Assembly (NCBI GenBank): GCA_009602735.1
Contig: WELA01002708.1
Span: 248,001-300,558, forward strand
Origin: Mesotaenium endlicherianum
Lineage: Eukaryota
Direction: 5' to 3'
Length of the DNA: 52,558 nt
A model generated the notes under the pieces. It saw nothing but the letters and a program-made list of their open reading frames with translations, had not been told where the DNA came from and did not search any database. This document shows, in pieces, positions 1,547 to 31,971 of this stretch. The translations under genes and the position numbers were made by a program. Within the stretch, counting starts at the first letter, position 1. The number at the start of each line of letters is the position of its first letter.

Positions 1547-2200
1547 TCAATGATAGAATGCGATCATTCCGTTCAGGACTCCGTATAATACCAAAACGGG
1601 ACGGCTGTTAAGGTCAAGCTTTTGAAACAGGCTGTCCCGGTAATTTTCTACCGTTTTGAAACTAACCCCCATTTTCTCAGCTATCTCTTTATAGCTCAAG
1701 TCGGTACTGGCAAGTTGAATAAATTCAACTTCTTTCTTTGTTAAAATACTCTTGCCGTAAAATCCTGTCTTTTTATTAGAATGCTCTCGAAATTGGAAAT
1801 ACTCCTTTTTAACAAGGTCGCCAAGGTAAAAACCATATTTATGCACCGACACGATTGCTTTCTGTATAACGGAAGGATCAGATGACTTATTAATATACCC
1901 GCAGGCACCGTTTACAATCATATTGATGATCATATCCTCTTCGCCGTAAAAAGAGAATACGATAATTTTAATATCCGGATATGACAACAACAATTTCTCC
2001 ATGGTTTGTTGACCGTTCATTACCGGCATTGAAATATCTAAAAGGACAATTTCCGGTATACAGGTACCAGATATTTTTTTTAAAAGTTCTGCTCCGTTAC
2101 TTGCTTCCATTACAATCTGAATTTCATCAGTCGATTCAATCAGCATAGCAATACCCCTTCTGGTTACCGGATGATCATCTACTAAGGCAATCTTAATCAT
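1547..2200 (-). CDS. NarL/FixJ-family response regulator (REC + LuxR HTH)
   Basis: IALVDDH, LLDISMPVMNG, GYINK receiver motifs; LTKKEVEF...KEIAEKMGVSFKTVENYRDSLFQKL HTH. Confidence 0.95.
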   Translation of the reverse strand: MIKIALVDDHPVTRRGIAMLIESTDEIQIVMEASNGAELLKKISGTCIPEIVLLDISMPVMNGQQTMEKLLLSYPDIKIIVFSFYGEEDMIINMIVNGACGYINKSSDPSVIQKAIVSVHKYGFYLGDLVKKEYFQFREHSNKKTGFYGKSILTKKEVEFIQLASTDLSYKEIAEKMGVSFKTVENYRDSLFQKLDLNSRPVLVLYGVLNGMIAFYH

Positions 2201-2578: not shown

Positions 2579-2867
2579 TGTATCAGTCAAAATTTGATTG
2601 TATTGTTGTATGGCATCAATCATTGCGAAAGAAAGTATGCAACAGATTGACTTCTAATACAAAGTGTAGTACGCTTAAACTAATTTCTAACCATTAGATC
2701 ATCGTTTATCGTGCCACTTTGTTCGGCGCTTTTTGTTTTTTGTCTCCATATCAAATTCTACCCAATGAATAATTCTAAAATAAAAAACTGGCTTCCCGGT
2801 GTTTCTGCTCTCATTTGAAGGGAAGCTTATCGTTCCAATCAAAAACCACAAACATAAAATTCTATTT

Positions 2868-4544
2868 ATGAAATCTCTGCCAACACTAACACCACAACAA
2901 GCTGGTGAGTTACTCGCATTTCAACGTGCTTCGAAACAAAGTGCAACTACTTACCTCAACCCTTCAGATCCCACACATCGAAAATTCATTGAAAGTATGC
3001 TCAATGCTGCCGGCAGAACACCGGCCAATTACCCATACCTCTATAAAGCACTGAACACGGGAGATTCATATAAAGGAGCCCCCGGCGTGGACAATGTACG
3101 CATGGTAGATGCAGGGAAAACTGCTGCCGGAAAAGCTACTGCAACCGTTTGGTCACGATCATCCAACGATAGCCTGATCAAAGGGGGTAATTTAATGGTA
3201 TTCGACAGTGATACCGGTGCACTACTGGCGCAGGGAGAGAATACAGCGGTGAAAAGAGGCTTTCTCGCTTGTCCTGCCAGGAGCGCTACCGCTGCACCGG
3301 CCGGAAAAAACCTTTCTCTTCTGTACATGGGGCACACAACAGATGCCAACGGGTCTACCCGTTTTTACAGTTATACCAATAAAGTTGCGGTAGCGCAGGA
3401 TGGCATCAAAGCTAATATTGCTATGCCTGTGATCCAGCATACAGGCAATGTAAACATTTGGATTGCAGTGGGCAGAGTAGCAGGTTCTCCATTTCCATCC
3501 AATACTGACTATATCTTTATAGAACCTTCCGCCAATGAAAATAATCCATATCTCATTGTTCCTTTTAAAGGTAATGTGGCGCTGAGCGGGCTTATTGACT
3601 TGCCCAGCCTTACCATTGCAGATCTCAGCACCAGTATTTTTGTAAACAATGGGCATGGCTCTACTGTCGAAATCACCAGAGCTACCCAATACACCACAGA
3701 TGCAAAGATGATTGGTGCTTTTTCAGTGGGTACTCCTGCCAATGTTTTGCAGTGGGAATTTCCCTATGATCAAAAGGGTTACCAACAAACAAACTCAATT
3801 GTATACAACTCTACTTCGCTGGGCAACGAAATTGATAGTTATTTCTATTTCGCATTTAATGGCATCCCATTAAAAGGCGGCGCTACTGCACCTCCATTTT
3901 TTGTCTGCAGTAAAAACACACCCGAAGACCCATCTATCAATTGCACGCAGATACCGAACCTGTATTTCTGGTGGCATTGCCTGGCCAAAGGCACATTAGT
4001 AACGCTGGAAGATGGTAGTAAAAAACCAATTGAAGCCATCAATGAAACCTTCAGGGTAAAAACCGGTACTAACGGAAGTAGTTTCGCAGTATGCGCTACC
4101 GCATTAGGGCGACATAGTTCCGATCCGGCAGCAGGCACCCGCAAAGAGATATTCCGGCTCACCACCGCTAATGGTAAAAGCATCACTGCTACCGAGAACC
4201 ACATGGTCTTTATGACGGTGGATAAGTGCAGAAGTATCAGCCATCTTGTTGCGGGTGACAAAGTAATGACCGATGAAGGCATGTCTACGGTAAAAAGCAT
4301 TGAAGCGATTGCTTACAACGATATGTTTTATGCCCTGGCACTGGGCAATGTAAAAGAACAAGCTGAAAAAAGTTTTCCGCACAATATGGCAAACTATTAT
4401 GCCAATGGAATCCTTTGCGGTGATCAGCTGGCAATGCGCCATCATTGCAATGAAGCGCACCATGATCTTGAATACATGCTGCCGCGCATCAAACAGGAAC
4501 TGCATACTGATTATGCATCCGCATTACATCACAAGCGCTTTTAA
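2868..4544 (+). CDS. Hint (Hedgehog/intein) domain protein; unknown N-terminal domain, Hint at about 3978-4424, short C-terminal tail
   Basis: CLAKGTLVTLEDGSKKPIE (block A), ITATENH (block B TxxH), NYYANGILCGD (block G-like, no His-Asn). ATG at 2868 is preferred over the GTG at 2799. Confidence 0.85.
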   Translation: MKSLPTLTPQQAGELLAFQRASKQSATTYLNPSDPTHRKFIESMLNAAGRTPANYPYLYKALNTGDSYKGAPGVDNVRMVDAGKTAAGKATATVWSRSSNDSLIKGGNLMVFDSDTGALLAQGENTAVKRGFLACPARSATAAPAGKNLSLLYMGHTTDANGSTRFYSYTNKVAVAQDGIKANIAMPVIQHTGNVNIWIAVGRVAGSPFPSNTDYIFIEPSANENNPYLIVPFKGNVALSGLIDLPSLTIADLSTSIFVNNGHGSTVEITRATQYTTDAKMIGAFSVGTPANVLQWEFPYDQKGYQQTNSIVYNSTSLGNEIDSYFYFAFNGIPLKGGATAPPFFVCSKNTPEDPSINCTQIPNLYFWWHCLAKGTLVTLEDGSKKPIEAINETFRVKTGTNGSSFAVCATALGRHSSDPAAGTRKEIFRLTTANGKSITATENHMVFMTVDKCRSISHLVAGDKVMTDEGMSTVKSIEAIAYNDMFYALALGNVKEQAEKSFPHNMANYYANGILCGDQLAMRHHCNEAHHDLEYMLPRIKQELHTDYASALHHKRF

Positions 4545-4554
4545 TACCCTACTC

Positions 4555-7500
4555 ATGGCCAACAGTCTTATCAAGAACCTGTTTTATGCCAGCCCCTATT
4601 CCGTTCCACCTCCCGGCGTAGGTACTACTGGTGTAACATTACAGACAGATCCGGCGCAATCGCCCACGCCTGCCGGCGTTACCAACCCCGTGCTGGTGAT
4701 CCGCTTGCGAATGGCGTCAAGCCCGGTGGTTATTGGCATATCTGCTACATCCGGTCCCGGTACAAGTGTAAAGACAGCTATCTATCAGCCGTCTTTTCCT
4801 TTATCCGCCACCGAGTCTTATATGATCGATATCATCTGGGTGCCGTCGGGCACACCGCCTGAAAATATCGACTGGAACAGTGCCATCGCATCTGCACCCG
4901 TAACAGCAGCCGAAGTGATGGTAGATAGCGCCGCTTTCAATGGCACTACGCTTGATGCAACGGTAACCTATGGTGCAAGCAGTGTTGCAGTAGGCGCACA
5001 GGTAAATGTATTCGCCCTATCAGGCGGTGTATATGTGAATATTGGCAGCGCGCAAACTCAGGGTAACAGGTTATCTGTACCTGTTACCACCACCGGGTTT
5101 ACTGCGCCATTCTCTTTCAATGCACAAGCCATTATTCCCACCAGCAATTCGGGAGGCGGTGCTTTTGCACCGCCTTTCAGCATGGGGCCTCCTACCGTGA
5201 TCAGCAATTACACCAGCGTACCACAAGCGGCTAAAACAATTGCTGCAGCTGTTTACAATGGCAAAAGCCTTTCTCTTTCCTGGAACCTCGATACCGTTGC
5301 CGGTTGCGTGAACCCCGATTCCAGCCTCATACAGGTACTTGCCAGCAACCAGGTTGTTGCCAGTTTTAAAGGAGGCCCTGTTTCTGCCAATATTCCGCTG
5401 GATATTTATGGCCAGTCAAACATTACCGTTCAGTTATCTACTGTAGCCAACAATATTGGCAGTACACCTTTGTCCTTCAGCCTGATCACGCAGGCGCCAA
5501 CGGTAACTAATGTTGTTGCTGATAAAACAGCGGGAAAAGTAACGGCAAATATTACAACGACCCCCACAGGTCTTTCCGCACAGGCTTACCTGATGGATGG
5601 AGATATAGTACTTGCCGGTCCTGTTGCACCCACTAGCGGCGTAGTGAGTTTTAGTTATAGTACATCAAAGTACAATGTAGAAGGAATGGTTGGGCTAAGC
5701 GTTGTTGCCAGCAGTGTATCTGCCGATGGAACAGTAACAGGCCCTGCAAGTAAGCCCGCCATTTTACTGGCCACCGCACCTATACTGCAATCCGCCCTCC
5801 TGCGCATCGATCCCGCAAACAACGCACAATGGAGAGCGGATATTGCCTGGAACCGCCTGCCTGATAGCGCTGCCAATGTTACTGCTTATACAGTTTCTGT
5901 TTTACAGGAAACGACTGTTATAGCTACGCAAACCATTTCCGGCACTACTGCCACACTTACGTTTGCCAAAACAGCAATCGACACCACCAAAACACAAACC
6001 ATACAACTCTTTGCTACCGGAATTACCGGCGGTAATAGCCCTGCACAAACTTTGTATGCGCTGTTTGCACCGCCATTGCTGGCTTCATTGGTTACAACAA
6101 AGGGACAAATCGGTATTACCTGGACCGTACCGGCCACGCTTCCGGCAGCCAATACATTGCCGGTAAGCTATCGCTCGATCATTGCATCCGGCGCTGCTAC
6201 TATTTATCGTGGAAACGAAACAACTGCTACACGCAGTGCCATTCAGCTTGCCGCCCTTTCTATTCCGGATACCGGCAACCTGGTGGCAATGGTAAATATT
6301 TCACTTGGACCGGTTACACTTCAGTGTGATCCGTCTATGGCTGCCACCTGTAGCGCCAGTCCGTTATTGACAGCACCCATTATCAACGCAACTACTGCTG
6401 CAGCCACTACCAATATAGCTACACTGAACTGGACCGCTGTTACAGGCGCCAATGCTATTGCCTATAATATCAATTTTACAAAAGGCAATCCGCAAACCAA
6501 TATTCCAACAAACGCTTTTGCATTAACAACAGCGCTTACGCCTGGAGCATTGCTCGGTTATACTGTAAGGGCAACCGGAACTTCAAACGGTGTTCCGGTT
6601 ACAGGGCCTCCTTCTAATGAAGCATGGGTGCCAACGAATATGGCCAATGTTTCCACAGTCCGCTTCACTGGTAGCAATACAACTGTGGAGTGGGAGCAGG
6701 TGCCAGATGCTGTATGCTACTGTATATCGGTATACGACAATGCAACGCCTGCCAACCAAGTGTATACCAATACCACCAGTGCCACCAGCGATTCGTTCAC
6801 TATTACGGCTGCCTCGGGGAAAGAATACACGGCCTATGTACAACCCATCATGAAAAATGGAACAGGTCTTGCCGGAACATCACTTAAACTATTCGCGCCA
6901 GCCTTATTCCTGAGCCAGCAGCCTGCTTCCGCCGCCTATCCATACATTTATCCGGCGCAAAGCATGTCGGTACTCGGTTCTGCAACCACAGGCCCTACGG
7001 CACAGGCCATTGTATTGTATTTACCCGAACTGGGTGCTGCATCCGGAGCACTGGGTACCACACCGATTGAAGTAGCGCCTTTCAAGATTGAACCTTCAGG
7101 AAATACTGCCTTACCCTATAAGCTAACCATTGCAGCAGATCCATTGGCCTGGACATTCAATACCACGGCTATCCGTGCCGCTCTGCAACAGGCCTATGTC
7201 AATTTCCTGAAGAATATTGAAACGCCTCCTGGGGGCACACTTGCCGGCGCCACGCCGTTTGGTATTTCACTCGTACAGTTGGCCATCGCCTGTTCATTAC
7301 CACAGACTTTTGCAGAACAACTCTATTACAATTTCGGATTCTCTACAGTTTCCACTGTGGGGTCGGGTTATGTAGACCTCAGGCCGGGCATGGTGTTGCG
7401 GGTAGCTGCAAGCGACTACATTGGCATTGCGCAAAGCGGACTGCCTTCCTGGATCAACGGTTATGCGGGCGCTACCATTCTCGATTTTGAAATAGGCAGC

Positions 7501-8139
7501 TATCTGTCGGGCACTAACTGGCGTACAGGGTTCGATGCATTTTTAAATACACTTACTTCGCAGGGCTCTCTTACCGTTTCATCACCGGCTGCCTCTACGG
7601 GTTCCGTTCAGGCCGGCCTTGCCGGGGCGGTTGACTTGTATTATCCGCAATTCATTCAACCTTTCTATCGCCTGTATTTCCCATCTGCCATCAGTAGTCC
7701 ATGGGGCAATGGATCAAATCTCACAGGATCGAATTTTACATTAGTAGCAGCGGGTAAATACAGCAGTTTGCAAAGCACAACAGTTGATCCGTCCAATAAC
7801 CCTACAGCGTATTTCCGCGGCAGAGCTATTGTAGAAGTGATGATCAAAGTATTGGTCAACGGAAGCGAAAGACTTGTACCCATCGGTACCAGCCTGGGCA
7901 ACCTGCTGGAGCAATTAGGCTTACGACCAGCATCTACATCACCGATATTGAAGCAACTTCGCGTTTATCGTTCCATCGTACCGGCAATTACCAGTACAAC
8001 TACTGCAACAGCATTGGGACCTCAACTGGAATTGTGTGTTGACTGGAATGGTTTGGCAGTATATGGAACAGGTAATGGGTTGAATGCCATGTCGGTTCCA
8101 TTAATGCCTGGCGACCAGGTTATCACAAATAAATATTAA
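4555..8139 (+). CDS. Large Thr/Ala/Ser-rich protein with FN3/Ig-like repeats and a C-terminal ThiS-like beta-grasp domain
   Basis: Recurring FN3-like W/Y patterns (LSLSWN, ADIAWN, IGITWT, ATLNWT...YTVRATG, TVEWE...YTAYVQP). C-terminus reads MIKVLVNGSERLVPIGTSLGNLLEQLG...LMPGDQVI. ATG at 4555 lies 10 nt after the upstream stop. Confidence 0.7.
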   Translation: MANSLIKNLFYASPYSVPPPGVGTTGVTLQTDPAQSPTPAGVTNPVLVIRLRMASSPVVIGISATSGPGTSVKTAIYQPSFPLSATESYMIDIIWVPSGTPPENIDWNSAIASAPVTAAEVMVDSAAFNGTTLDATVTYGASSVAVGAQVNVFALSGGVYVNIGSAQTQGNRLSVPVTTTGFTAPFSFNAQAIIPTSNSGGGAFAPPFSMGPPTVISNYTSVPQAAKTIAAAVYNGKSLSLSWNLDTVAGCVNPDSSLIQVLASNQVVASFKGGPVSANIPLDIYGQSNITVQLSTVANNIGSTPLSFSLITQAPTVTNVVADKTAGKVTANITTTPTGLSAQAYLMDGDIVLAGPVAPTSGVVSFSYSTSKYNVEGMVGLSVVASSVSADGTVTGPASKPAILLATAPILQSALLRIDPANNAQWRADIAWNRLPDSAANVTAYTVSVLQETTVIATQTISGTTATLTFAKTAIDTTKTQTIQLFATGITGGNSPAQTLYALFAPPLLASLVTTKGQIGITWTVPATLPAANTLPVSYRSIIASGAATIYRGNETTATRSAIQLAALSIPDTGNLVAMVNISLGPVTLQCDPSMAATCSASPLLTAPIINATTAAATTNIATLNWTAVTGANAIAYNINFTKGNPQTNIPTNAFALTTALTPGALLGYTVRATGTSNGVPVTGPPSNEAWVPTNMANVSTVRFTGSNTTVEWEQVPDAVCYCISVYDNATPANQVYTNTTSATSDSFTITAASGKEYTAYVQPIMKNGTGLAGTSLKLFAPALFLSQQPASAAYPYIYPAQSMSVLGSATTGPTAQAIVLYLPELGAASGALGTTPIEVAPFKIEPSGNTALPYKLTIAADPLAWTFNTTAIRAALQQAYVNFLKNIETPPGGTLAGATPFGISLVQLAIACSLPQTFAEQLYYNFGFSTVSTVGSGYVDLRPGMVLRVAASDYIGIAQSGLPSWINGYAGATILDFEIGSYLSGTNWRTGFDAFLNTLTSQGSLTVSSPAASTGSVQAGLAGAVDLYYPQFIQPFYRLYFPSAISSPWGNGSNLTGSNFTLVAAGKYSSLQSTTVDPSNNPTAYFRGRAIVEVMIKVLVNGSERLVPIGTSLGNLLEQLGLRPASTSPILKQLRVYRSIVPAITSTTTATALGPQLELCVDWNGLAVYGTGNGLNAMSVPLMPGDQVITNKY

Positions 8140-8146
8140 CCCATTC

Positions 8147-11100
8147 ATGAGCGCTGTTCCGGTATTCAACCAGGTTAACTCTTCCGTATATGTGTTGTCA
8201 ACACTCGCAGATACCGGACTGGTCAATTATTGGGCAGGATACTTTGCATATCCACCTGGTAGCCTGGGCACCAGCGCCAGTACAAGTACAGTGTGGCAGA
8301 ACATCGGTGGCTTTTATTTATTCCTAGATCAAATACCTTCCGACTGGACAAAGTTCGCAGCAGATTTAACGGCACTCCGTCCAAATCTGGGTCCGCCTGA
8401 TATCGTTCGTTGTGTGTGGATCAGCAATGCAGGTCAGTCTTATTTGCAATGGCAGATCACTGTAGCTTTTGCAAAAGCTACCGGAACGGGTGTCAACATC
8501 AGTTGGCAATTGATGCGATCCGTAGCTTTTAACATCGGCGCTTACCAATTATCGCTGACAGGATTGAGTGCACTCACTTATATCACCGATGAGAACGGAG
8601 GCGGTATCGGCTTTCCTGGCGGGGTGTTCAATGGCCCGGAAGGGGGCTATACTTTTCCAACAGCACAGCTGTCATTCAGCGGAACAGCACTTGGTGCATT
8701 CAGCAGCAGTATGACTATTGCAGCGCCTTCCAGCCAGGACCAGTGTGATCTGTGGAAAGCACTCAACATTGGTTTGCAATATGCAGCGGCACCTACGCCT
8801 TCTGATGATGAACCAGTTCCTCCTGTTAATGGAGATGATCCCGACCCGGCAGCTATGGCCTATGCAACTGCAACAAAAATATTGTTCATGCCTGTGTTCG
8901 CAAGGCAAACAGCAACCCTTAACCTCGGCATCCTGTTCGATCCATTGCTGCCACTGGTGGCTTCCCGCACTTCATTCAGTTTATTTCCTGCGGGAACAAC
9001 GGCTTCACCTGTACAGGAGAGTTTCCTGAGAACCACCCGCGGATACACTATTCAGTTAACGCCACTCAAAGCGAATGGGGTACTCCCCGATGCACGTTTT
9101 GTATTCGGCTATTGCCCGGTACAGGAAAGCCTGTCAGAAGAAGGATATCGTTATCATTTAAGTCCCGATGGTGCATTCCAGGCAACCATCCTCACTCCTT
9201 CGCAAAAAAAGAGTAAGCGCAGCACAACTACACCCCTGCCCAATCAATTATTATTGGGTTTGTCCGGATTGGAATACGCAAGCCTCGATGGCGCCAGTTA
9301 CATGATCATATTCCAGGGAAACAAACCGGCATTCATTCCTTATGTTCCGCCATCGCAATCACAGGCACCCGATATATCTAAAGCACTGACAGGAGCGGCA
9401 ACTACTTCACACCTCACTGTTATGTCGCTCAACAACCAGGTGGTTAACCCTGTATATTATGCGCAACCGCGCGAAGCGCCGCTCTTTTCCGGTATCGATC
9501 ATCGTACCGACAATATCCTTGATTTCAATCCCATGCCTGCTTTTACCTTTCCTTATAATGTGCAACAGCAGCCAGTTGTATTTCCCGTAGGCATTTACAA
9601 AGGACTCAGCAGTGATGAGAATGCACTTGCACGTGAAATGGAAAATGCAAGCCTGGCCCCCTACCGTAATTATTTTATCAGTAAACAATATGGTGTAACA
9701 GCCCATGCCGCCAACGCGGAAAACTTCCCCGTACCCAAACGACGTTTACGCAGCGTGAATGATCCGCTGGGTGTGACGCCACAAGGACTCGTAGCTGAAC
9801 TGACGCCCGACTATAAAAATTTCGATGGTCTCATCATGGGTAATATGCCCGGCACTAATTATCCCAAAGTAGACTTCACAGCTGTAGAAGGCATGTTCAA
9901 GCAAGCTTTGCAGAACAATCAATTGTTTTTTGTAGCAACCAACGCAGGCGTGCTTATGAGTGGCACTTCGGTACGGTACCAGCTGACAGAAAAAGACAAA
10001 CCCTTTCTGCTGGCGATGGGGGTAACGCAGGCTGTTATTGATGCCGTATACCTGGCTGTAAGCAGGGCCACACAGCCGTTTGATACGGAGGAGTTATTTG
10101 TAAACTGTATCCGTACTGCTGCGGGTAATGATCTCGGTTCTTTTCTCAAAGTAGCCGGCATACTCAAAGTGGAAATGGATGGATGGACTTTCCAGTTGTC
10201 GCCGCGCACCTGGCGTACCGATGCGGAGAGTCCAACACTCCTGGTTGCCAAATTCTGCAACCGCTCACTGAGAGACCTGGCCAATGATACCAGTAGCTGG
10301 TATTGGCCCGAAGTAGCTACACCTCAGAATGGAACGCTGACTCAAACACAAACAGTATTATTAAATATTTGTAAGGCGGCCGCTGCACCCGATGCAGCCA
10401 AACCCCTGCGCATTTTTTACGATACGGTGCTCAACGACAAAAACTGGAACGGCTTCTTGTTTCTGAATGCTCCGGTGGATATTTCAGAGATGCCCGATGA
10501 CCTGAAATTCTTAACAGCAGGTATTGACCTTACCAAATTCTGTGCACATCATATCGGTTTCTCACAAACGCCCTTCAATGTGCTGAATGGTGTTCCCCAG
10601 TTGCAACAGACGGCGGCATTCGGACTGATCAATTACGAAGACCCCATGGATCTCTACGCGGAACAGAGCATTCCATTTGGTTTTAAAACAACAAGGCTGC
10701 GGGTGCGTTTTGCCAATGCGGCCCTCGTAGATTTCTCGGCCGAAGTAGAACTCATGCTTAACAGCCTGTTAGGATCTTCATTAACCAAGCAAATAGCAGC
10801 ACGCGGAAATAACCTGATCATTGAAGGCTCTTACCAGCGTGTGGGCGGCGCACCCTGCTATGCATTTGCACTGAATGGGGAAAATATTTTCAACGCCAAC
10901 GATACGGTGCTTACAGACATCGAAGTATTATCGGTACAGGTGGTTAATGGTGGAATTACCAATTCTGTAAACGTGCTCACCAATTTTATATTGATGGGGA
11001 ATTTCAGGTTCCTGCGTATAGAAGCATTCGATCTGTTCTCTTTTGGTCCGGGCGAAGATACCGACGACAGGTTCCTGCGATACAATGGACTTGGTATTAA

Positions 11101-11851
11101 CATGCAATTCTCACTGGCTACACCGAAACAACAAATCTTTACGGTAAAAGAATCCAATACTGCATTCGACATGGTGGCCAGTCATCAACGGACATCCTCA
11201 CTGATGAATAATTTCCCATTAGCCATCAGCGGATTGGTTGCCAGCCCCAATCTTGCAGCGGAAGGCGAAAAGCCAAGTGGACAAACACCGGAAGACATGG
11301 GTTATACTTCTGTTGCAGCGCCACTGGAGCAAACACCGATGGTGCCTGGCTGGTATGGGCTGGTACTGACGCTGGACCTGGGAACATTCGGCGCATTGAC
11401 TGGTAGTGTAAGCTTTAAAATTTCTATCCTCGCCGCCTGGAGGAAAGGTGATTCGCAAACGAATGTACCAGTTTATCTGGGGTTGAAATTACCAGGTATA
11501 CCGGTGCTGGGCGGAAGTTTTCCTTTACAGGGCGTGTTGAAGATCGGTTTCCGGAATTTTCAATTCGAAACTTATACTACCGCACAAAACGAGCTCGGGT
11601 ACCTGTTACGGCTTCGGCGTTTTTCATTATCTGTGCTGGTATGGAGTTTCCCTCCCGGCAATAACAACATCATTTTATTCGGACAGCCGCGAAACCCGAA
11701 AGGTTCATTGGGTTGGTATGCAGCGTACAGTGATGACAAAGACGATACACAGGCAAAGACAGATCCATTATTATTAGAAAATACAACGCCACTACCGGAT
11801 CATGTGCAGCGGCGTTTAAAATCGGGCAGGCGTACGCCACCCATCGGGTAA
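8147..11851 (+). CDS. Large hypothetical protein (1234 aa) with a beta-strand-rich C-terminal part
   Basis: Long ORF starting 7 nt after the upstream stop; no recognisable catalytic motif or signal peptide. Confidence 0.8.
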   Translation: MSAVPVFNQVNSSVYVLSTLADTGLVNYWAGYFAYPPGSLGTSASTSTVWQNIGGFYLFLDQIPSDWTKFAADLTALRPNLGPPDIVRCVWISNAGQSYLQWQITVAFAKATGTGVNISWQLMRSVAFNIGAYQLSLTGLSALTYITDENGGGIGFPGGVFNGPEGGYTFPTAQLSFSGTALGAFSSSMTIAAPSSQDQCDLWKALNIGLQYAAAPTPSDDEPVPPVNGDDPDPAAMAYATATKILFMPVFARQTATLNLGILFDPLLPLVASRTSFSLFPAGTTASPVQESFLRTTRGYTIQLTPLKANGVLPDARFVFGYCPVQESLSEEGYRYHLSPDGAFQATILTPSQKKSKRSTTTPLPNQLLLGLSGLEYASLDGASYMIIFQGNKPAFIPYVPPSQSQAPDISKALTGAATTSHLTVMSLNNQVVNPVYYAQPREAPLFSGIDHRTDNILDFNPMPAFTFPYNVQQQPVVFPVGIYKGLSSDENALAREMENASLAPYRNYFISKQYGVTAHAANAENFPVPKRRLRSVNDPLGVTPQGLVAELTPDYKNFDGLIMGNMPGTNYPKVDFTAVEGMFKQALQNNQLFFVATNAGVLMSGTSVRYQLTEKDKPFLLAMGVTQAVIDAVYLAVSRATQPFDTEELFVNCIRTAAGNDLGSFLKVAGILKVEMDGWTFQLSPRTWRTDAESPTLLVAKFCNRSLRDLANDTSSWYWPEVATPQNGTLTQTQTVLLNICKAAAAPDAAKPLRIFYDTVLNDKNWNGFLFLNAPVDISEMPDDLKFLTAGIDLTKFCAHHIGFSQTPFNVLNGVPQLQQTAAFGLINYEDPMDLYAEQSIPFGFKTTRLRVRFANAALVDFSAEVELMLNSLLGSSLTKQIAARGNNLIIEGSYQRVGGAPCYAFALNGENIFNANDTVLTDIEVLSVQVVNGGITNSVNVLTNFILMGNFRFLRIEAFDLFSFGPGEDTDDRFLRYNGLGINMQFSLATPKQQIFTVKESNTAFDMVASHQRTSSLMNNFPLAISGLVASPNLAAEGEKPSGQTPEDMGYTSVAAPLEQTPMVPGWYGLVLTLDLGTFGALTGSVSFKISILAAWRKGDSQTNVPVYLGLKLPGIPVLGGSFPLQGVLKIGFRNFQFETYTTAQNELGYLLRLRRFSLSVLVWSFPPGNNNIILFGQPRNPKGSLGWYAAYSDDKDDTQAKTDPLLLENTTPLPDHVQRRLKSGRRTPPIG

Positions 11852-11867
11852 TATAAAAGCATACAAT

Positions 11868-13253
11868 ATGGCAACAGGTGTTGTAAAAGTAACCGTAGTA
11901 GACGTTGGACAGGGGCAATGTACGTTCGTGGAAATTTATAACACGGACAGCACCCCTAAACTCATTCATGCACTTCTTTTCGATTGTGGAAGTGATAAAA
12001 AAAGCGATGAAACTTCAACCAACCTCCAATATATTGCTACCAAGGTAGCAGGTATGGATACACCTGCCTTTGATACCATTTTTTTCTCCCATAGTGATAA
12101 AGACCACATTAGCCTCACCTATGATCTCCTGCAGGAATTCCCTTCTTCGAAAAAACCAACCGTAAAACAGGTTTGGTATGGAGGCGCCCGCAGCAGGTAT
12201 ACCAAATACGATTTCAACATCCTGGATTACCTTGAAGAAGAAGGATATTGCACAAAATCCAATCTCAAAACAACAGGAAGTAATTACACCGGATACGACA
12301 CAACTTCTAAAAGTTTCACTCAATATCTCTGGAGAAGCGCCGATAATTCGGTTGCAGTATATGCAATCGTTTCTAATGTATTGTCGGATGATCCTGACTG
12401 GGACGAAAATGACCTGGATGTAGAAGGAAAAACCGCAGAAGCATTGAACCGGGTATCCATGGTCTGCTGGCTTTCTTATGCAGGTGCTTCTTATGTAATC
12501 TGTGGTGATGCTACTAATAAAACGATGGGGGCCATAAACACTCGGTTTACTGCCGGCACTACCGTATTTAATAAAAATAACATGACAACACTGCCCCACC
12601 ACGGAAGCCGGGCCACGGGGTTTGCAGTGAAATCATCAGAAGTTGCAAGCAGTACAGCCAAACAGGTGGTAAGCGATTTTGCAGGACTTCTTAAGTCGAA
12701 GACCCTGACAATAAGTTCTTTTGAAAAACACCGGCACCCTTCCCTGGAGTTGATGAATGCATTTCCGCCTACCATTACTACTCCTTTTGTAAGAGATCCC
12801 AGGCTTAAGGAAACAAATGCCCACAGACTGATAGGCAATGTCGATATCGCATTAACACAGCCCAAAGGATGGAGTCTCCTGAAAACATATTACTCTTTCG
12901 ATACTACTTCCTGTATGTTCAGCACCAGGTATTCCCAGTTAATGACATGGTTTTCCTACAACCTGGGAGCTTCGTCAGTGGCCGTAGCAAAAGGTCCCAC
13001 ATCATCATCAGTAGCTATCAATGCATTTGCCTGCTGGCAGTATGAAACACAAACAAATGGGAACTTCCTCTTAGGTGGTTATGCCAATCTTGCATTGCCA
13101 CTTGTGCTGTTTACAGCAGGAACCACATCTATGGTTGCATCACAACCCAATCCCGCCATCGCATCCGTCCGGGTAAAAGATCAATCGAAAAAAGTACGGC
13201 AGCCTGCTCATACGCAATCGCAATTTTATGATCAGTTAAAACAGTTTCGTTGA
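11868..13253 (+). CDS. ComEC/Rec2-type metallo-beta-lactamase-fold hydrolase, paralog 1
   Basis: DVGQG, LLFDCGS, SHSDKDH, CGDA, PHHGS and HRHP motifs; no membrane competence domain. Confidence 0.85.
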   Translation: MATGVVKVTVVDVGQGQCTFVEIYNTDSTPKLIHALLFDCGSDKKSDETSTNLQYIATKVAGMDTPAFDTIFFSHSDKDHISLTYDLLQEFPSSKKPTVKQVWYGGARSRYTKYDFNILDYLEEEGYCTKSNLKTTGSNYTGYDTTSKSFTQYLWRSADNSVAVYAIVSNVLSDDPDWDENDLDVEGKTAEALNRVSMVCWLSYAGASYVICGDATNKTMGAINTRFTAGTTVFNKNNMTTLPHHGSRATGFAVKSSEVASSTAKQVVSDFAGLLKSKTLTISSFEKHRHPSLELMNAFPPTITTPFVRDPRLKETNAHRLIGNVDIALTQPKGWSLLKTYYSFDTTSCMFSTRYSQLMTWFSYNLGASSVAVAKGPTSSSVAINAFACWQYETQTNGNFLLGGYANLALPLVLFTAGTTSMVASQPNPAIASVRVKDQSKKVRQPAHTQSQFYDQLKQFR

Positions 13254-13311: not shown

Positions 13312-14739
13312 ATGGCAACAGGCATTGTAGTAATAAGCGTATTAGATGTAGGACAGGGACAATGTACGTTTGTAGAGATCTATAATACGGCGAGCACCCC
13401 TAAAATCATTCATACGCTTCTTTTCGATTGCGGAAGTGATAAACAAAGTAGTGAAACGCAAACAAACCTCCAATATATTGCTACCAAGGTAGCAAGTATG
13501 GATACCCCTGCCTTTGACACTATTTTTTTCTCCCATAGCGATAAAGACCATATCAGCCTCACCTATGACCTCTTGCAGAAATTCCCTTCTTCAAAAAAAC
13601 CAACTGTAAAACAGGTTTGGTACGGAGGAGCCCGCGAAAAGTACACCAAGTCTGGCTTTAATATTCTGAATTACCTTGAAACGAAAGGATATTGCACATC
13701 TTCCAATATCAAAACAACAGGAAGCAATTACACCGGCTACAATACAACTTCTAAAAGTTTCACAGAATATCTCTGGAAAAGCACTGATAATTCGGTTAAG
13801 GTATATGCGATCGCTTCCAACGTATTGTCAGATGATCCTGATTGGGATGATAATGACTTGAGTGTAGAAGGGAAAACAGCAGAGGCACTGAACCGCGTAT
13901 CCATGGTCTGCTGGCTTTCCTATGCAGGCTCTTCTTATGTGATCTGCGGCGATGCCACCAATAAAACAATGGGTGCCATAAATAATCTGTTTACCGGTGG
14001 CACCCCCGTATTTAATCAAAATCTGATGACAACATTGCCCCACCACGGTAGCCGGGCCACAGGGTTTGCAGTCAGCTCATCAGCAACAGCAAGCCTTACA
14101 GCTATATTAGTAGTAAGCTCATTCTCTGCTCTGTTAAAATCTAAAACAATAACTGTCAGCGCCTACCAAAAGCACCGGCATCCATCATTGCAGTTAATGA
14201 GTTATTTTATCCCTACTATAACTACCCCAATCATAAAAGACCCCCGATTAAAAGAAAAAAACTCGCATCGGATTACGGCTTATCTCGACATCAATGTGGG
14301 AACGGGCACAGGCATGTTCCTCGTCAGAAATCTACCTTATTCATTTGAAACATTAATCAATACTTTAACAACGCGGTATTTCGACGGATTTCCCACATTC
14401 TCTTATAACATTGGTCTCTTTACTACAGCTAAGCCATCTCAGGGACTGGTAACCTCAACTACCGTAATCAATGGTTTTGCATGCTGGCAGTTTGAAACAC
14501 AAACAAATGGGGACTTTCTTTTAGGGGGTTATGCCAATCTTGCATTACCACTTGTGCTGTTTACAACAGGAGCCACATCTTCGGTCGCATCGAAATCCGG
14601 TACGACCGACTTGTTGGAAGCAATTACAGTAACAAATCCGCCCATCGCAACTGTTAGGATAAAAGACCAACCACAAAAAATATGGCAACCTTCACAAAGG
14701 CTATCGCAATTCCATAACCATTTAACACAGTTTCGTTGA
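13312..14739 (+). CDS. ComEC/Rec2-type metallo-beta-lactamase-fold hydrolase, paralog 2
   Basis: Same motifs as paralog 1, with long shared nucleotide tracts (e.g. aacctccaatatattgctaccaaggtagca in both), indicating tandem duplication. Confidence 0.85.
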   Translation: MATGIVVISVLDVGQGQCTFVEIYNTASTPKIIHTLLFDCGSDKQSSETQTNLQYIATKVASMDTPAFDTIFFSHSDKDHISLTYDLLQKFPSSKKPTVKQVWYGGAREKYTKSGFNILNYLETKGYCTSSNIKTTGSNYTGYNTTSKSFTEYLWKSTDNSVKVYAIASNVLSDDPDWDDNDLSVEGKTAEALNRVSMVCWLSYAGSSYVICGDATNKTMGAINNLFTGGTPVFNQNLMTTLPHHGSRATGFAVSSSATASLTAILVVSSFSALLKSKTITVSAYQKHRHPSLQLMSYFIPTITTPIIKDPRLKEKNSHRITAYLDINVGTGTGMFLVRNLPYSFETLINTLTTRYFDGFPTFSYNIGLFTTAKPSQGLVTSTTVINGFACWQFETQTNGDFLLGGYANLALPLVLFTTGATSSVASKSGTTDLLEAITVTNPPIATVRIKDQPQKIWQPSQRLSQFHNHLTQFR

Positions 14740-14752
14740 AAACGGCTAAATC

Positions 14753-17700
14753 ATGAGTTCAGCAAATGTATATACAGCGCTCAATAGTTATATTCAAAAC
14801 AACTCTATTGATTTATGGGCTGCAGCCAACGGCTCGCCCGACCTGGCAGGCATGCTGCCGGTATTGGGGCTATTCAACATCAACGCGGCTTATACACTTA
14901 CATTTGTTGTCTTAACGCAAAGTCCCAGTGGTGCAAGCGTTCGCCTCACGGGAAGCGGTTCTTTCAATGGTGCAAACCCATATACGGCAAATGCAACCCT
15001 GCAATATATACAGGAGGGAAATGTTTTTTCATTGGAACTGGCCATCACTACAGACTGGATTATTTCCAATTTCTTTTCTTCATTGCCCGATACGCTGATG
15101 CAGGTGCCAACGATTCAGCAAGGTATTTTATGGTATCCTTCTGTACTGAATGGCATGACAATACGAACGGCTGTTTTCTCAGGAAAAACAGGGGAAACTA
15201 AATTAACGCTCACCGGTTTCTTATTACAGCCTAATAATCCGAATCTTTTAAACAGGACCCCGATGGTCGGACCCTGGCCGCTTCGTTTATCAGGGTCAGT
15301 AGAAATGCCCACCAGTACCCGCAGTTATCCATTGATCAACCTCGATGCAAGGGGAAATGATACCATTATCAACGTTGCAAAAGAGCAAGGGATCAGCGGT
15401 CCGGATGCTATGGGCCTCTCTAATCCCGGTCTTACACTACTGGTACAACCACTGAAACCACAGCAGCCTAACAGGATCGCTTTTTCAACCATCGAGTTAT
15501 TTGCCGATTTTGCCCTGGGTGAGATCAAAGGCCGTATTGCCACCCTGGTTCTTTCGAATGATGACGTGTGGAATTTTACTGTCCGCTTCAAGAAAAACGT
15601 ATTTACATTGAGACAGGGCCTTGCGCAGCTTACCCGCATTTTTGGCGTGGAACTGCCCATCCCTATGAACTTCCCCGTACTCACTGATTTTTATGTTGGG
15701 GAAATCGATATGGATCTTCAGAATACAGGTTCTAATGCAATCCCTTCCTTCTCTTTGTTGAATCTGGCTGTTACCATACGCTCAGAAAAAACATGGGACC
15801 CTCCTATTCCTTTTGTTACGATTGACAAAGTTGGCACACGATGGGTATGGGGGTGGTCGATGGTGAACGGGGAGGGCGGGCCAGAAAAAAGATACACACT
15901 CACCGGTTCTGTATTTGGCACCATCAATTTCGGCGGCAGTAACGGGCAAACAGAATTATTGCCTGCTCCACCTCCGCCGGACGATGCACCGGATGACGGT
16001 AGCCAGGCAGTTGCTGTAAACGGCAACCCGGTATCGCTCAATGTAAACATGTCGTTGCCCAATTTTATCATCTCCGGCTCTCTTGCAGATGGTAGTTATA
16101 TCCCCATCGGCAAAGCATTGAATTTTTTCTTTAAGAATGATGGGCCTCCTACCGGACCACAAACAATGAATGTTACTCGGTTAAGGTTCTCCGCAGATCC
16201 CATCGGCCAGAATTATTTTGCAGAAGCCGCCATACTTTTTGGTGACCCGGTAAACCCAGACCCGCAACAGGGATGGGAGATCGATCTCTATGTCATTACC
16301 ATTATTCTCAATCAGCTCGAATTCAATATTGCCGTGAATGATGGTAAAGTATCGGGCGGGATCAGCGGCACTTTTTTCCTGGACCAGGGTGACCCCAGCG
16401 ACTACAAAATGCCGCGGATCATGATCAGCGCGGAATATCCGCCGCAACAGCCCGATGCACCGGAAGGATGGACACTCAGCGGTCATCTATACCCCGGCAC
16501 ATCCATCAGCGTTACAAAACTGGTTTATAAATTTATTTATGGCGGAGGTACAACCCATCCACCCCGCTGGGTTCCGGATATTCTCATCGACCGCCTTGAT
16601 GTTGTTTTCACCACTGGTTCCAAAACACCAACCAGAGAAGTAAAAGCATCTTACACTTTCGGCGGCACCATTTCCGTTCGCTGGGAGCCCAATATTTTCA
16701 ATACCCCGCTAAAGATCAACGCTTCAGCCAGCATTGACCTGGCAAAACCTGCTACAACAGATACACCCAGCGGCAAGCTAACAGGTACTTTCAGTGTCAA
16801 CAAGATCCAGCTCACTGCAAGTCTTACTTTCGGTGTTCCGGAACCTACTTATCTTTTCAAAGTACAGTTCGACCAGCTTTGGCTGCAGGCCACCACATCG
16901 TGGCGGGGCGAACAGAACAACCGCCACCAGGTTGTTTCATTGCAGTTAGGCGGTGTTACACTGGGTGATATACTGGAATACCTGGTGAACCTTGCTGCAC
17001 CTACCATTGGCTTCAAGCTCGATTCGCCCTGGGATGTATTAAAGAAAGTGGACCTCTCCCGTTTTGTGCTGACCATTGATCCGAAAGAAAATATCGTTGA
17101 ATTTGTATTCAATGCCAATGTTGACCTGGTGATTGCACAACTCGATTCAATTGGTGTGCGGTACAGTAAAAAAAGCGGCGACGGGAAAGTAGACCTGATC
17201 CTCACCGGCAGTTTCCTCGGACAGCAATACACCAACGATAAGCCATTAAGCTGGGATGTGGTCAATGATCCGCCTCCCGCTGTTCCTGGGAAAGGACCAA
17301 GCCTGGTCAACCTTCGTTACCTGGGTCTGGGCCAGAGGGTAACATTCAGCGGTATTACCCCCAGTACCGTTGCGGATAGTATTAAGAAGCTGAAGCAGGA
17401 CATGAAGAAGCCGCCGGACGATGGTAATCCATTGCCCAGCACTATGTTGTATGCTGCCAATAGCCAATGGCTGATCGGACTGGATATACAACTGATGGAG
17501 ACTCTTGATCTCGCGATCATCTTCAACGACCCCAAACTATATGGCTTATCCATTGCATTGAGCGGTGAACGTGCCGGACCATTGGCCGGCCTGCGTTTTG
17601 AAATACTCTATAAAAAGATCACCGATGAAATAGGCATGTACCGCATTGAGTTCCAGGTACCCGATATGTTCCGCACCATCCAGTTGGGCGCGGTTTCTAT

Positions 17701-20700
17701 CACACTGGGCATCATCGTAATTGAAATTTATACCAACGGTAATTTCAAAGTAGACCTTGGCTTCCCGTATAACCGCAACTTCGACCGTTCCTTCAGTTTG
17801 CAGGCTACCATCTTTATTGGCCGTGGTGGTTTTTACCTCGGCGTATTGAATGGCGATACTTCCACGCAGGTACCACGTATTTCCAACGGTAATTTCTCAC
17901 CTGTTATAGAACTGGGCATCGGCATCTCAGCAGGTGTGGGAAGAGAGATACGCGCCGGCATTCTTGCAGGCGGCGCTTTTGTAGAGCTGCAGGTCATATT
18001 CCAGGGCGTGCTCGCCTGGTTCAATCCCAACAGCAGCGGCGCTGCTCCCGCCAAATTTTTCAAATGCCAGGGCGTGGCCGCCATTCATGGAAAAATATAT
18101 GGCTCGGTAGATTTTGTAGTGGTCAAAGTATCCATTACCCTCGAAGCCTATGCACAGGTGAGCATTATCTATGAATGTTATCAACCTATGCTCATTGAAC
18201 TGGAAGTGGATGTAAGCGCCGAAGCATCGATCAAAATATTATTCGTCAGAATTTATTTTTCATTTGGCGTACACCTAAGCCTCGATTTCACCGTTGGCTC
18301 CGCCGAACCCACGCCCTGGATACTCAGCAACAACAGCAGTGGCGGCAGGTCCTCTGCTGCACTGGCAACTACCAGCCATCACCTGCTGAACCCCAGGCGT
18401 CCTGTTGCGTTGAGAACCAACAAGCACCGGCGTTTGCAAGTGCTTCGTGAAGCGCATGTAATGACCATGGGGTTGCAGGGTACGGCTGCTTTGCAGGAAT
18501 ACAACCTGGTATGGCATCCCACCAATAAAGTTTTCCCTGACTCACCACGCAATGCACACCTTACCTTATTGCCGGTATTCACCATTAATAGTGTACCGGT
18601 TAACTGGGATGGAACAACACCGGTAAACAGCAACCCCAATTACCGAAGCGCTTTTGTTCTTTTTGCAGACACCGGCATGTCCACCTCAGCCGTAACAGCG
18701 GCTGACTGCGCCATACGCAGTGCGGCCCACAGCGCCATGACGGTAAGCGATACCGATACCAGTTTGCTCGCTGCCGATATCCTCACACAAGGCTTGCTTT
18801 TATATGCCATCCAGGCATTCCCGCGCGACCCTGCAGAAGGCAACAATATTACGGCCTGGCAGATCACGTCCTTACTGGATCAGCTCAATATGCCCGATAC
18901 CATGTCGGGCGGACTATCTATCGACAACCTTAAAACATTCTTCACAACCAATATCAATCTCTGGATCAGTGGCGATATTACACCCCGTCCTGATGACAAA
19001 TCTGCCATGGTATTGCCACTCCCTCCATTTGTGGGATGGACATCTCCGCAGGGTGGCACGATTGATTTCAGCACTAAGAATAAGATCGGTCCTTGGTATG
19101 AATGGGGTATCTCACAATTACTGGGTAGTTATTTCCCGGTAGGTGGAGACAACAGTAAGAAGCCGGCGCAGGACGATCCCTCCACTTACGAATCCTTCAC
19201 CAGTTTCATGTTCCGCGACTTTTGCCTCATCCTTATGCAGAACGGTATTAAGGAGATGCAGAAGCAGATGAATAATACCACGGTTACCGTAACGACTGTG
19301 AGCAGTGTAGTGCAAAACCTGGAACAAGTAGCAAAGACACTGCCCAATGCCAGCGTGCCATACAGGATCTGTTCGGGAGACACAGTTGAAAGCGTAGCGG
19401 AAAGCCTGGGTGCAACGGTTGAAGAGCTTACATTCCTGAACGATCACCTGCAAAGCGACCTTGAAACATTACCCGTTGGCACACCCCTTACCATTAAGCT
19501 GGGCGTTCCGCCCGAAGTATTGGCTATGGACAACGCCGGTATTTCGTTTGCCGTGACTCAATGTACATTAGGCACACTGGTTCACCAGGCCGCTCAAAAC
19601 GATACCCTGCAAAATATTGCCAGCCTCTTCAATGTAGCAAGCGTTGCCACTTTACTCGCCTACCAGGATAAAGCCTACCCCGTACTTTCTTCCGGTCCCA
19701 ATATCCTGGCCCCTGGAAACAGTTTCGATCTGCCTCAGCAAACATTTGTCAATGCACCTGCCGATTTTGTTCAGCTGCGTGTCGCAGGTGTTTTCTTTGC
19801 ACGTTACCTTGATGCATCCATATTGAAAGACACGGCTCTTCCTGATATGGCCAACTGGTATGTGCAGGCCATTGCCGAGGTGAACCAGGACCTGTTGAAA
19901 CAATTGTTCCCCGAGCAAAAGATCCCTTCGGTCATTGAATTACCACCGGGTCAGGTTTTATCGGTACCGAATGCCTATCAGAATGCCTACAATATACTCG
20001 CTAATCGTAACAATTATACCACTGTTGCAGGCGATACACTTTATCGCATCGGGCTGGCGCTCGTATTCCAGCAGGATTTCGGAACTACTACCCCACCAGG
20101 TATTACACAGTGGCCTACATTCCGGGCAGGCGTTACATCCACCGGCACACAAAGCTGGTCTATCCCCGCATGGCAAGGAATGATCATTGAATCCGGAACA
20201 AACATTGAATCGCTGGTACGCCGGTTGATTGTAAACGCAAGCTGGATAAGCATTATACCGGTGCAACCTTCAAAAGGCACATGGTCATACGACTGGGATA
20301 AAGTGGCCGTATGGTTATCGACAGCAAAAATCATTGCACCGCTCGCCAGCATCACCGTACCCAATGCAACAGTAGTTTCAACCACCCCGCTCAGCTTCAG
20401 CATACTTTCGACAAAATATGGACTTACTGTTACCGACGCAGCCACGCGTCTTAAAAAATTAAACGGTCTCTATGCCAGTGGCACCGTGCTGAAAGTGAAA
20501 TTATTACCGGCGCAGGATATCACCGTTCTGGTGAATGCAGTACTGCAAGGCGATAGTTTTACATCCATCGTGAACCAGTCCTCACGAATGTTGCTCTCAG
20601 GATTACGTCTGCCATCACTGACAACGGATGGAGGCGGACATACGGTGCCTGATCCTGCCCATCCTTCTCCACTGTATGATCTTACTGGTCAGCAGTTCAA

Positions 20701-31399: not shown

Positions 31400-31971
31400 A
31401 CGGAAAAATAAAAGAGCTCATTGCAGCATCCATTGAAGTGAAGCGCCAGGTGCTGGAAGATGCAGCTCTCCAACAAACCATACAGCAGGTAATTGATATA
31501 GTGACCACCACCTTCCAAAAAGGCAATAAAGTATTGTTTTGTGGCAATGGTGGCAGTGCTGCCGATGCCCAACACCTGGCTGCCGAATTTTCCGGCAGGT
31601 TTTATAAAGACCGTAAAGCGCTTCCTTCCGAAGCACTGCACTGCAACACTTCTTACATAACAGCCGTTGCTAATGATTACAGCTACGATGTGATCTATTC
31701 AAGACTGGTAGACGGGATGTGTGTAGCCGGTGATGTATTGATCGGACTGAGCACATCGGGTAATTCGGGTAATATCCTCAAAGCTTTTGAAACAGCAAAA
31801 GAAAAAGGAGTGATCACGATTGGCATGACAGGCGCAAGCGGAGGAAAAATGAAAGCCATCAGCGATTACCTTATCAACGTACCTTCCACCGATACACCGC
31901 GCATACAGGAATCGCATATACTGATCGGACATATTATTTGCCAATTGGTAGAAGCTAATATTTTCGGATAA
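31396..31971 (+). CDS. gmhA: Phosphoheptose isomerase (SIS domain)
   Basis: CGNGGSAADAQHLAAEF, ANDYSY, STSGNS, RIQESHILIGH. Confidence 0.95.
   Translation: MNGKIKELIAASIEVKRQVLEDAALQQTIQQVIDIVTTTFQKGNKVLFCGNGGSAADAQHLAAEFSGRFYKDRKALPSEALHCNTSYITAVANDYSYDVIYSRLVDGMCVAGDVLIGLSTSGNSGNILKAFETAKEKGVITIGMTGASGGKMKAISDYLINVPSTDTPRIQESHILIGHIICQLVEANIFG

Follow-up and report, generated by a model that had tools for sequence, protein, structure and literature searches.

The stretch of DNA analysed here (contig WELA01002708.1 of assembly GCA_009602735.1, deposited under Mesotaenium endlicherianum, positions 248,001 to 300,558 of the forward strand; 52,558 nucleotides, hereafter the window) raises the question of what a Hint domain does near the C-terminus of a protein when the His-Asn pair that closes a splicing intein is replaced by Gly-Asp. 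The protein, g1, is bacterial, is encoded by the first gene of an island of six (g1 to g6) and consists of an N-terminal domain, a Hint domain and a short C-terminal tail. An earlier interpretation made from the letters of the window alone (the sequence-only reading) took the Hint domain for a Hedgehog-like cleavage or adduct-ligation module. That interpretation appears to be right in outline and is partly supported by the present analysis, which points to an autoprocessing module and not to a splicing intein. Judging from the predicted structure and the conserved residues, we consider it probable (about 0.7-0.75) that the g1 Hint domain carries out an N-S acyl shift at His370-Cys371 and releases the 370-residue, immunoglobulin (Ig)-like N-domain. 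The features of g1 are the following.

2868..4544, + strand: g1, the 558-amino-acid (aa) Hint domain-containing protein (N-domain, Hint domain and tail), from its open reading frame (ORF), translation and 49 homologues
2868..3977, + strand: N-terminal part, residues 1-370, the fragment predicted to be released (AlphaFold2 model)
3975..3980, + strand: predicted scissile junction His370|Cys371, which reads H|C within FWWH|CLAKGT, Cys371 being codon 3978
3978..4424, + strand: Hint domain, residues 371-519 (VIA, Foldseek, TIGR01445)
4113..4115, + strand: His416, Hint position 46, the second conserved His (24 of 25 sequences) and a candidate general base
4191..4202, + strand: block B, T442-E-N-H445 (TENH), with the His in 25 of 25 sequences
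4422..4424, + strand: Asp519, the final Hint residue, in the place taken by the terminal Asn in inteins (25 of 25 sequences; structural alignments)
4425..4541, + strand: 39-residue polar tail, residues 520-558, three helices, LPR...H-x-D-Y-x-S-A (AlphaFold2 model and alignment)

The ORF that encloses g1 extends from 2799 to 4544 (+ strand). The ATG at 2868 is its most likely start because 26 homologues align from the Met of this codon (MKSLPTL), and with that start the N-terminal part comprises exactly 370 residues. The signature motifs all lie at the positions where the sequence-only reading had put them, namely Cys1 in WWH|CLAKGT, the block B sequence TENH, and YANGILCGD at the end of the domain (codons 4401-4427 read ANGILCGDQ). 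Its estimates of an N-terminal part of roughly 370 aa and a tail of roughly 40 residues correspond to the 370 and 39 residues found, the stop codon occupying 4542-4544.

The sequence signal for the Hint domain is modest but real, and the predicted structure is clear. In g1, the NCBIfam model TIGR01445 intein_Nterm (intein N-terminal splicing region) scores 32.7 bits, above its cut-off of 24.5, and Pfam Hint (PF01079) is matched with an E-value of 2.8e-5. The sequence-only reading had suggested a comparison of hidden Markov model (HMM) scores for Hint, Hint_2, PT-HINT and Vint. Among 27 family members, Pfam Hint was matched at E ≤ 1 by 25 (best E 1.5e-7), Intein_splicing by 22, Vint by 19, Hom_end_hint by 14 and Hint_2, weakly, by six (best E 0.0039); PT-HINT was not among the families matched by these members.

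The AlphaFold2 model of g1, built from 27 sequences, has a mean predicted local distance difference test score (pLDDT) of 91.3 and a predicted template modelling score (pTM) of 0.88. Aligned with VIA, it matches Hedgehog (1at0) with Z 17.6 and a root-mean-square deviation of 1.9 Å over 129 residues, the gp41-1 intein (6riz) with Z 17.6, the bacterial intein-like (BIL) domain BIL2 of Tetrahymena (6tmm) with Z 17.5 and the BIL domain of C. thermocellum (2lwy) with Z 17.4. By entry title, VIA ranks 1-30 are all Hint-fold structures (inteins, intein-type homing endonucleases, BIL, Vint and Hedgehog), and the best Foldseek match is again BIL2 (6y75; E 1.6e-8, TMt 0.72). Residues 371-519 are predicted to adopt the Hint fold with a similarity far beyond chance, so that on both the fold and TIGR01445 the Hint assignment of the sequence-only reading is upheld. 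At least eight intein alignments (6riz, 2lwy, 4o1r, 2imz, 1am2, 2cw8, 1dq3 and 7cfv) stop at model residue 519, paired with the last residue of the chain. Because the intein chain ends coincide with this residue, Asp519 stands in the place of the intein terminal Asn and Gly518 in that of the penultimate His. In profile comparison, the 25 Hint and tail sequences described below match the Mtu RecA intein with E 2.5e-5 and the Cth BIL domain with E 8.6e-5, and Hedgehog marginally (E 0.08-0.23); in the HMM alignment with Hedgehog (profile 9-78 against chain 9-76), the register of His416 is uncertain by about two residues.

With one genome scanned per species, a pattern search yielded 27 g1 loci, which belong to Bacteroidota, Acidobacteriota, Chloroflexota, Alpha- and Gammaproteobacteria, Actinomycetota and one Halobacteriota metagenome-assembled genome (an archaeon). 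Conservation was assessed in an alignment of 25 Hint and tail sequences, the window and 24 of these loci; L003, L013 and L026 were dropped, their tblastn match not being in a single frame. Ten residues are invariant in this alignment (Cys371, Gly375, Thr376, Gly383, Val397, Thr411, His445, Asp519, Asp548 and Ser551), and His416 is present in 24 of the 25 sequences. The residue after Asp519 (+1) is Gln in nine, His in nine, Lys in three, Phe in three and Val in one, and never Cys, Ser or Thr. A word-indexed protein collection yielded 49 homologues of g1, the best-named of which are called "Hint domain-containing protein"; 47 of these span 95% or more of the query, and two, at 77% and 92%, appear to be truncated records. 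None of the 49 lacks the Hint domain, and no protein consisting of the N-domain only was found within the 306-977 aa range searched. The lack of a +1 nucleophile in the 25 sequences and of a Hint-less form among the 49 homologues agrees with the view of the sequence-only reading that this is not a mobile splicing intein.

The profile of the 25 sequences was also compared with 1.84 billion representative proteins, which gave 5256 matches at E ≤ 1e-3, 787 clusters at E ≤ 1e-10 and 75 at E ≤ 1e-30. Almost all of the best 150 representatives are 530-630 aa long, with the Hint and tail module as their C-terminal end. In all 145 full matches among them the Hint domain begins with Cys; of the 152 aligned rows obtained for these 150 representatives, 99% retain the block B His, 97% the terminal Asp and 93% the tail Asp. 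The residue preceding the Cys (-1) is His in 78 of the 145 full matches, Gly in 39, Ser in 25 and another residue in three, junctions of the types xxNS|C and xxYG|C being present among the best 150; the +1 residue is mixed, with Ser in seven of 127. A recognisable g1-like N-domain was found in 118 of the 150 representatives and was undetectable in 32. Given these counts, the Hint domain and tail form the conserved core of the family; divergence is faster in the N-domain, and the WWH end characterises a subfamily. The aromatic YFWWH end, through which the sequence-only reading had imagined a coupling of the N-domain, thus holds in the g1 subfamily but not in the wider family.

In the AlphaFold2 model, the N-domain consists of three short helices followed by two Ig-like beta-sandwiches (residues ~71-177 and 179-368). 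Its fold matches are weak (filamin Ig domains, VIA Z 6.1), and nothing was found for it in Pfam or PHROGs and no usable match in the ESM Atlas. Cys347 and Cys359 (window 3906-3944) lie 24 and 12 residues upstream of the junction; in the 27-sequence alignment, Cys359 is invariant and Cys347 nearly so, and the pair could form a disulfide or bind a metal. No invariant Lys was seen in the N-domain in the homologue alignment.

The tail is modelled as three helices (520-531, 534-540 and 543-555) with pLDDT 89-96. The conserved residues among the tail columns counted are His546 (20 of 25), Asp548 (25), Tyr549 (22) and Ser551 (25), and no others. The sequence-only reading had called the tail His-rich; this is true of g1, with seven His, but is specific to it, His546 being the only one conserved. 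A hydrophobic 19-mer (Kyte-Doolittle mean >1.8) occurs nowhere in g1, and the N-terminus is not signal-like. The lipid adduct that the sequence-only reading had considered finds no counterpart in a polar tail and a protein without a signal peptide, and a sterol or lipid adduct was rejected on these grounds.

The fold, the conserved residues and the architecture are read directly from the model and the alignments; the chemistry that we infer from here on would run in three steps. Cys371 would attack the carbonyl of His370 in an N-S acyl shift, aided by Thr442 and His445; the thioester would then be resolved and the N-domain would depart with His370 as its C-terminus; and the Hint domain and tail would remain one unit, acting with g2. 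The reason to suppose joint action with g2 is that some genomes encode g1 joined to the N-terminus of g2 by a flexible linker. Such in-frame fusions, with a low-complexity linker after the tail, make up 9 of 43 g2 homologue clusters, and all nine retain xWH|C, the block B His and GxxxGD. For the thioester, plain hydrolysis, that is, a maturation cut, is the single most likely outcome, which we put forward tentatively, at somewhat less than even odds. A second chemical step is suspected because thioester formation in known Hint domains does not depend on the invariant Asp519, Asp548 and Ser551, nor on His416.

Judged by its sequence motifs, g1 is a member of a family of bacterial C-terminal Hint proteins that was noticed earlier but is uncharacterised. 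Such Hint-like proteins were described by Bürglin (2008, BMC Genomics 9:127, PMC2362128), who credits an earlier sighting to Dassa and Pietrokovski. The six proteins aligned in Additional file 16 of that article come from Stigmatella, Myxococcus, Photorhabdus, Reinekea, Serratia and Yersinia intermedia; the Hint domain ends in G-x-[LA]-[VI]-G-D in six of the six, and a tail of the form LP...W..D-[FY]-x-N follows in five. The article gives neither a function nor an experiment for them. In common with g1, they are proteins of ~530-660 aa with a C-terminal Hint domain, Cys1, motif A (C-x-x-x-G-T) and the motif B His, and the ...NGILCGD and LPR...H-x-DY-x-SA of g1 fit their G-D end and LP...D-[YF] tail, the motifs having been matched by eye and not by a computed alignment. 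They have other N-terminal regions, signal peptides in some cases and Ser or Gly at -1, whereas g1 has no signal peptide, has His at -1 and belongs to the g1-g6 island. Bürglin noted two conserved Cys residues upstream of the Hint domain in this family, at a much greater distance from the junction than Cys347 and Cys359 of g1.

At the level of architecture, g1 has the layout of Hedgehog and Hog proteins, as the sequence-only reading had proposed: a releasable N-domain, a Hint domain and, closing the protein, a helical C-terminal extension, with neither a terminal Asn nor a +1 nucleophile. It also has a conserved His at Hint position 46, which we take to be the position of the adduct-activating Asp in the Hint module of Hedgehog. 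The Hedgehog junction reads G|C-F, whereas that of g1 reads H|C-L, and g1 lacks a secretion signal. Hog-type Hint domains are said in a review to have an extra Asp or His that activates the cholesterol adduct (PMC7765530), and the Hedgehog extension is a helix-loop-helix required for transfer (PMC7242414). The sterol recognition region of Hedgehog has ~60-100 residues and is membrane-active (PMC7242414), in contrast to the 39 polar residues of g1, and a sterol link for g1 is implausible.

BIL2 of the Tetrahymena BUBL1 locus (6y75, 6tmm) is, like the domain proposed here, an autoprocessing Hint domain and not a mobile intein; its thioester is converted to a Lys-to-C-terminus isopeptide without ATP (PMC8616854). 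It ends in Asn (the crystal is of an N143A variant) and lies between two ubiquitin-like domains, whereas in g1 the domain comes after Ig-like domains and has a Gly-Asp end followed by a tail. Type A BIL domains (2lwy) and PT-HINT domains share with g1 the Hint fold, occurrence in non-conserved bacterial proteins and the lack of a +1 nucleophile. Type A BILs retain His-Asn, in contrast to the Gly-Asp of g1, and are able to splice by aminolysis in the absence of a +1 nucleophile (Mills et al. 2014, PMC4031507). Unlike in PT-HINT proteins, no toxin domain follows the g1 Hint domain, and a pretoxin-HINT role was rejected on this ground and because PT-HINT is unmatched by the 27 family members. Type B BILs (Hint_2, PF13403) are not similar to block G of inteins and cleave instead of splicing (PMC4031507, PMC7765530), the C-terminus being cut by an atypical reaction (PMC7765530); they resemble the predicted g1 domain in this, but Hint_2 is touched by six of the 27 family members only, and weakly. 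Inteins with a C-terminal Asp, Gln or Glu cyclise that residue in step 3 of splicing, and Asp cyclisation is an accepted route of C-terminal cleavage (PMC4031507). These share with g1 an Asp in the place of the terminal Asn but are true inteins, with a +1 nucleophile, within conserved host proteins. The sequence-only reading had taken the loss of His-Asn to preclude C-terminal cleavage; that conclusion does not follow, because Asp519 is invariant in the Asn place and inteins ending in Asp can cyclise.

How the thioester would be used is the point on which the closest alternatives diverge. It might be attacked by a nucleophile held by the Hint and tail unit, either a Lys or hydroxyl of a partner (g2, g3 or g6) or a small molecule, and the N-domain would then be ligated through His370; this is possible, with a lower probability than hydrolysis. 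Consistent with it are the invariant residues beyond the needs of the acyl shift, the adduct-activating Asp or His of Hog domains, the transfer function of the Hedgehog extension set beside the three-helix tail of g1, the isopeptide chemistry of BIL2, which is the best Foldseek match, and the g1-g2 fusions, which argue that the two proteins meet. The N-domain, however, has no invariant Lys, and self-polymerisation is therefore unsupported; no candidate acceptor site was identified, the polar tail is without lipid-binding character, and g1 occurs without a detectable g3 in one genome. A more specific version, in which the Hint and tail unit would be a single-turnover, ATP-independent protein ligase that hands the N-fragment via His370 to g2 or another giant product of the island and so builds a covalently branched megadalton assembly, is speculative and rather unlikely. 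Doubtful, too, is a BIL-like reaction at both ends, in which an anhydride at Asp519 would break the Asp519-Gln520 bond and the freed amine of the tail (or of tail, linker and g2) might join the N-domain via the thioester. The invariance of Asp519 in the place of the intein Asn would fit, as would the cyclisation, aminolysis and atypical C-terminal cleavage known from Asp/Gln/Glu inteins and from type A and type B BILs. Nevertheless, the assisting penultimate His is replaced by Gly or Ala in all 25 sequences, the tail is modelled confidently, and the Hint domain is present in every family member, unlike an inserted element; moreover, the tail is kept between Hint domain and linker in all seven fusions in which it could be located and therefore looks like a part of the Hint unit rather than an extein.

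Several observations weigh against release of the N-domain by the g1 Hint domain. The Pfam Hint score of g1, 24.2 bits, is below the gathering score of 29.7. Position 442, the block B Thr, is Thr in 18 sequences, Ser in five and Ile in two, the latter being the fused copies L002 and L004; position 518 is Gly in 23 and Ala in two, so that the penultimate His of inteins is missing; and the block F Asp position, placed by eye, is Asn in 11, Gly in seven, Ala in four, Ser in two and Asp in one, so that this intein-helping residue is mostly missing as well. In addition, the preference for hydrolysis over transfer is a matter of parsimony only, no experimental study of the bacterial Hint family with Gly-Asp and a tail was found in the literature, and the link between g1 and the island is not obligatory, because a Chitinophaga genome (G009, see below) has g1 whereas g3 was not found there with the query used. 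The low Pfam score and the missing or substituted residues could mean that the Hint domain is spent or purely structural, for example a docking site for g2, with no cleavage. This is very unlikely, given that Cys371 and His445 are present in 25 of 25 sequences across phyla and that, in the wider family, the Cys comes first in 145 of 145 full matches and the block B His is kept in 99% of the rows. These residues are kept while the N-domain fades to undetectable in 32 of the 150 representatives, a pattern expected of selected catalytic residues. The match to TIGR01445 and the intein structures among the best fold matches would suit a canonical mobile splicing intein in a host gene, to which we nevertheless assign a negligible probability, because the domain has no His-Asn end, no +1 Cys, Ser or Thr in any of the 25 sequences (with Ser rare at +1 in the wider set), no homing endonuclease, only 39 residues after it and no Hint-less allele among the 49 homologues.

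The bacterial Hint family with a Gly-Asp end and a tail is large, as the 787 clusters indicate, and has been present in alignments since 2008. With its Hedgehog-like layout of cargo, Hint domain and C-terminal helper, it could reveal what directs Hint thioesters towards water or a selected nucleophile, and the g1 family could show the origin of the Hog layout. For protein engineering, a compact module able to cleave or ligate itself, with its unusual terminal Asp, would be a useful tool, and the Hint domain is one of the few experimental handles on a largely unannotated six-gene island. The ligase version, if true, would place g1 beside Hedgehog cholesteroylation and BUBL ubiquitin dispensing as their bacterial counterpart, and possibly make it a prokaryotic relative of Hog.

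The other genes of the island and the tRNA gene at its border are the following.

4555..8139, + strand: g2, 1194 aa, about nine FN3/Ig-like domains and an alpha/beta C-terminal region (AlphaFold2 pLDDT 81; VIA FN3 Z ~10; Foldseek)
8147..11851, + strand: g3, 1234 aa, no recognised domain (no Pfam, NCBIfam, PADLOC, PHROGs or PDB sequence match)
11868..13253, + strand: g4, 461-aa ComEC-type protein of the metallo-beta-lactamase (MBL) fold (PADLOC LmuA E 3e-12, RTasMBL 2.2e-9)
13312..14739, + strand: g5, 475 aa, tandem paralogue of g4, 72% identical (PADLOC matches; motifs)
14753..26671, + strand: g6, 3972 aa, with LysM (residues 1537-1582) as the sole recognised domain (Pfam LysM E 1e-10)
27338..27412, - strand: tRNA-Pro(GGG) at the island border, 667 bases past the end of g6 (ARAGORN)

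The island totals ~7,900 codons and is almost wholly unannotated. Sequence searches of the PDB gave nothing for g2, g3 and g6, and PADLOC and PHROGs nothing for g1, g2, g3 and g6; in the ESM Atlas, g3 led to unnamed clusters and to DUF6603 (a 0.78 lead), the latter unconfirmed by Pfam at E ≤ 5. No ATPase, transporter or signal peptide was seen among g2-g6, and no hydrophobic 19-mer of the signal-peptide or membrane type in g1-g6, except for one borderline segment of g3. The VIA matches listed for the whole g2 model are all FN3 domains. Both g4 and g5 contain intact HSDKDH and PHHGS motifs, and the defence-library models that match them best are those of LmuA and the DRT-associated MBL; a single copy of the g4/g5 type is present in several related loci. 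As a separate observation, the C-terminus of g2 (window 7800-8139, residues ~1080-1194) reads V-x-V-N-G...P-L-x-P-G-D-Q-V and resembles the ThiS/MoaD beta-grasp; the match to ThiS (1f0z), at E 0.44, is only a lead.

Across the 27 loci, in flanks limited to 10 kb and with three loci on short contigs, g2 was found downstream of g1 in 22, g3 in 19, g4/g5 in 12 and g6 in six, and no gene is conserved upstream of g1. That g1 is associated with an island of giant unknown proteins, conserved and horizontally spread, appears to be a new finding. The nine g1-g2 fusion proteins (P0060, P0064, P0067, P0068, P0070, P0071, P0083, P0084 and P0089) are 1725-1786 aa long, and the fusions at L002:4317-9866, L010:6328-11688 and L004:10001-15178 each have a stand-alone g1 paralogue directly upstream. 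Much of g1-g6, the g1/g2 junction included (X15 record 3, 4356-5990), is represented in contigs from RNA libraries of three studies; as the upstream intergenic bin is also covered, DNA carry-over is possible and these contigs are weak evidence of transcription. A response regulator of the LuxR/GerE type (window 1547-2200, - strand) is divergent upstream of g1 and is not conserved beside g1 elsewhere.

The island is conserved across at least six phyla, yet it is rare. Of 150 other genomes in the same family, one contains g1, and g1 was not detected in the same-genus genome; the Hint and tail profile matched, at E ≤ 1e-15, one of 400 other genomes of the phylum. The Chitinophaga genome G009 (L005:10001-11665) contains an intact g1 orthologue, 59% identical (tblastn) and with the catalytic residues kept, beside a TonB-dependent receptor-like gene; no g2 was found within 10 kb of this g1, and the query used detected no g3 in the genome. 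The same-genus genome G130 is syntenic with the window (pyrC, DUF4199, glycosyltransferases) from position 31704 down to 27315, where synteny stops at tRNA-Pro; the 4.35 kb of G130 past the tRNA (to the contig end) match neither the window nor the 18 kb upstream. The true start of pyrC is probably later than annotated by its ORF, because the latter (27360-28766) overlaps tRNA-Pro.

No relatives of g1 were matched in a phage collection. Distant relatives are located on large plasmids or chromids of Pseudoalteromonas, Azospirillum and Tistrella. One of them, on the P. xiamenensis plasmid NZ_CP072135.1 (L034:15097-24341), is a Hint and tail protein with 26% identity over 47% of g1, and its neighbours are a 1230-aa PKD-domain protein, an internalin-like protein, a GEVED-domain protein and hypothetical proteins. 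This cluster suggests that members of the wider family may pair with various surface-type repeat proteins.

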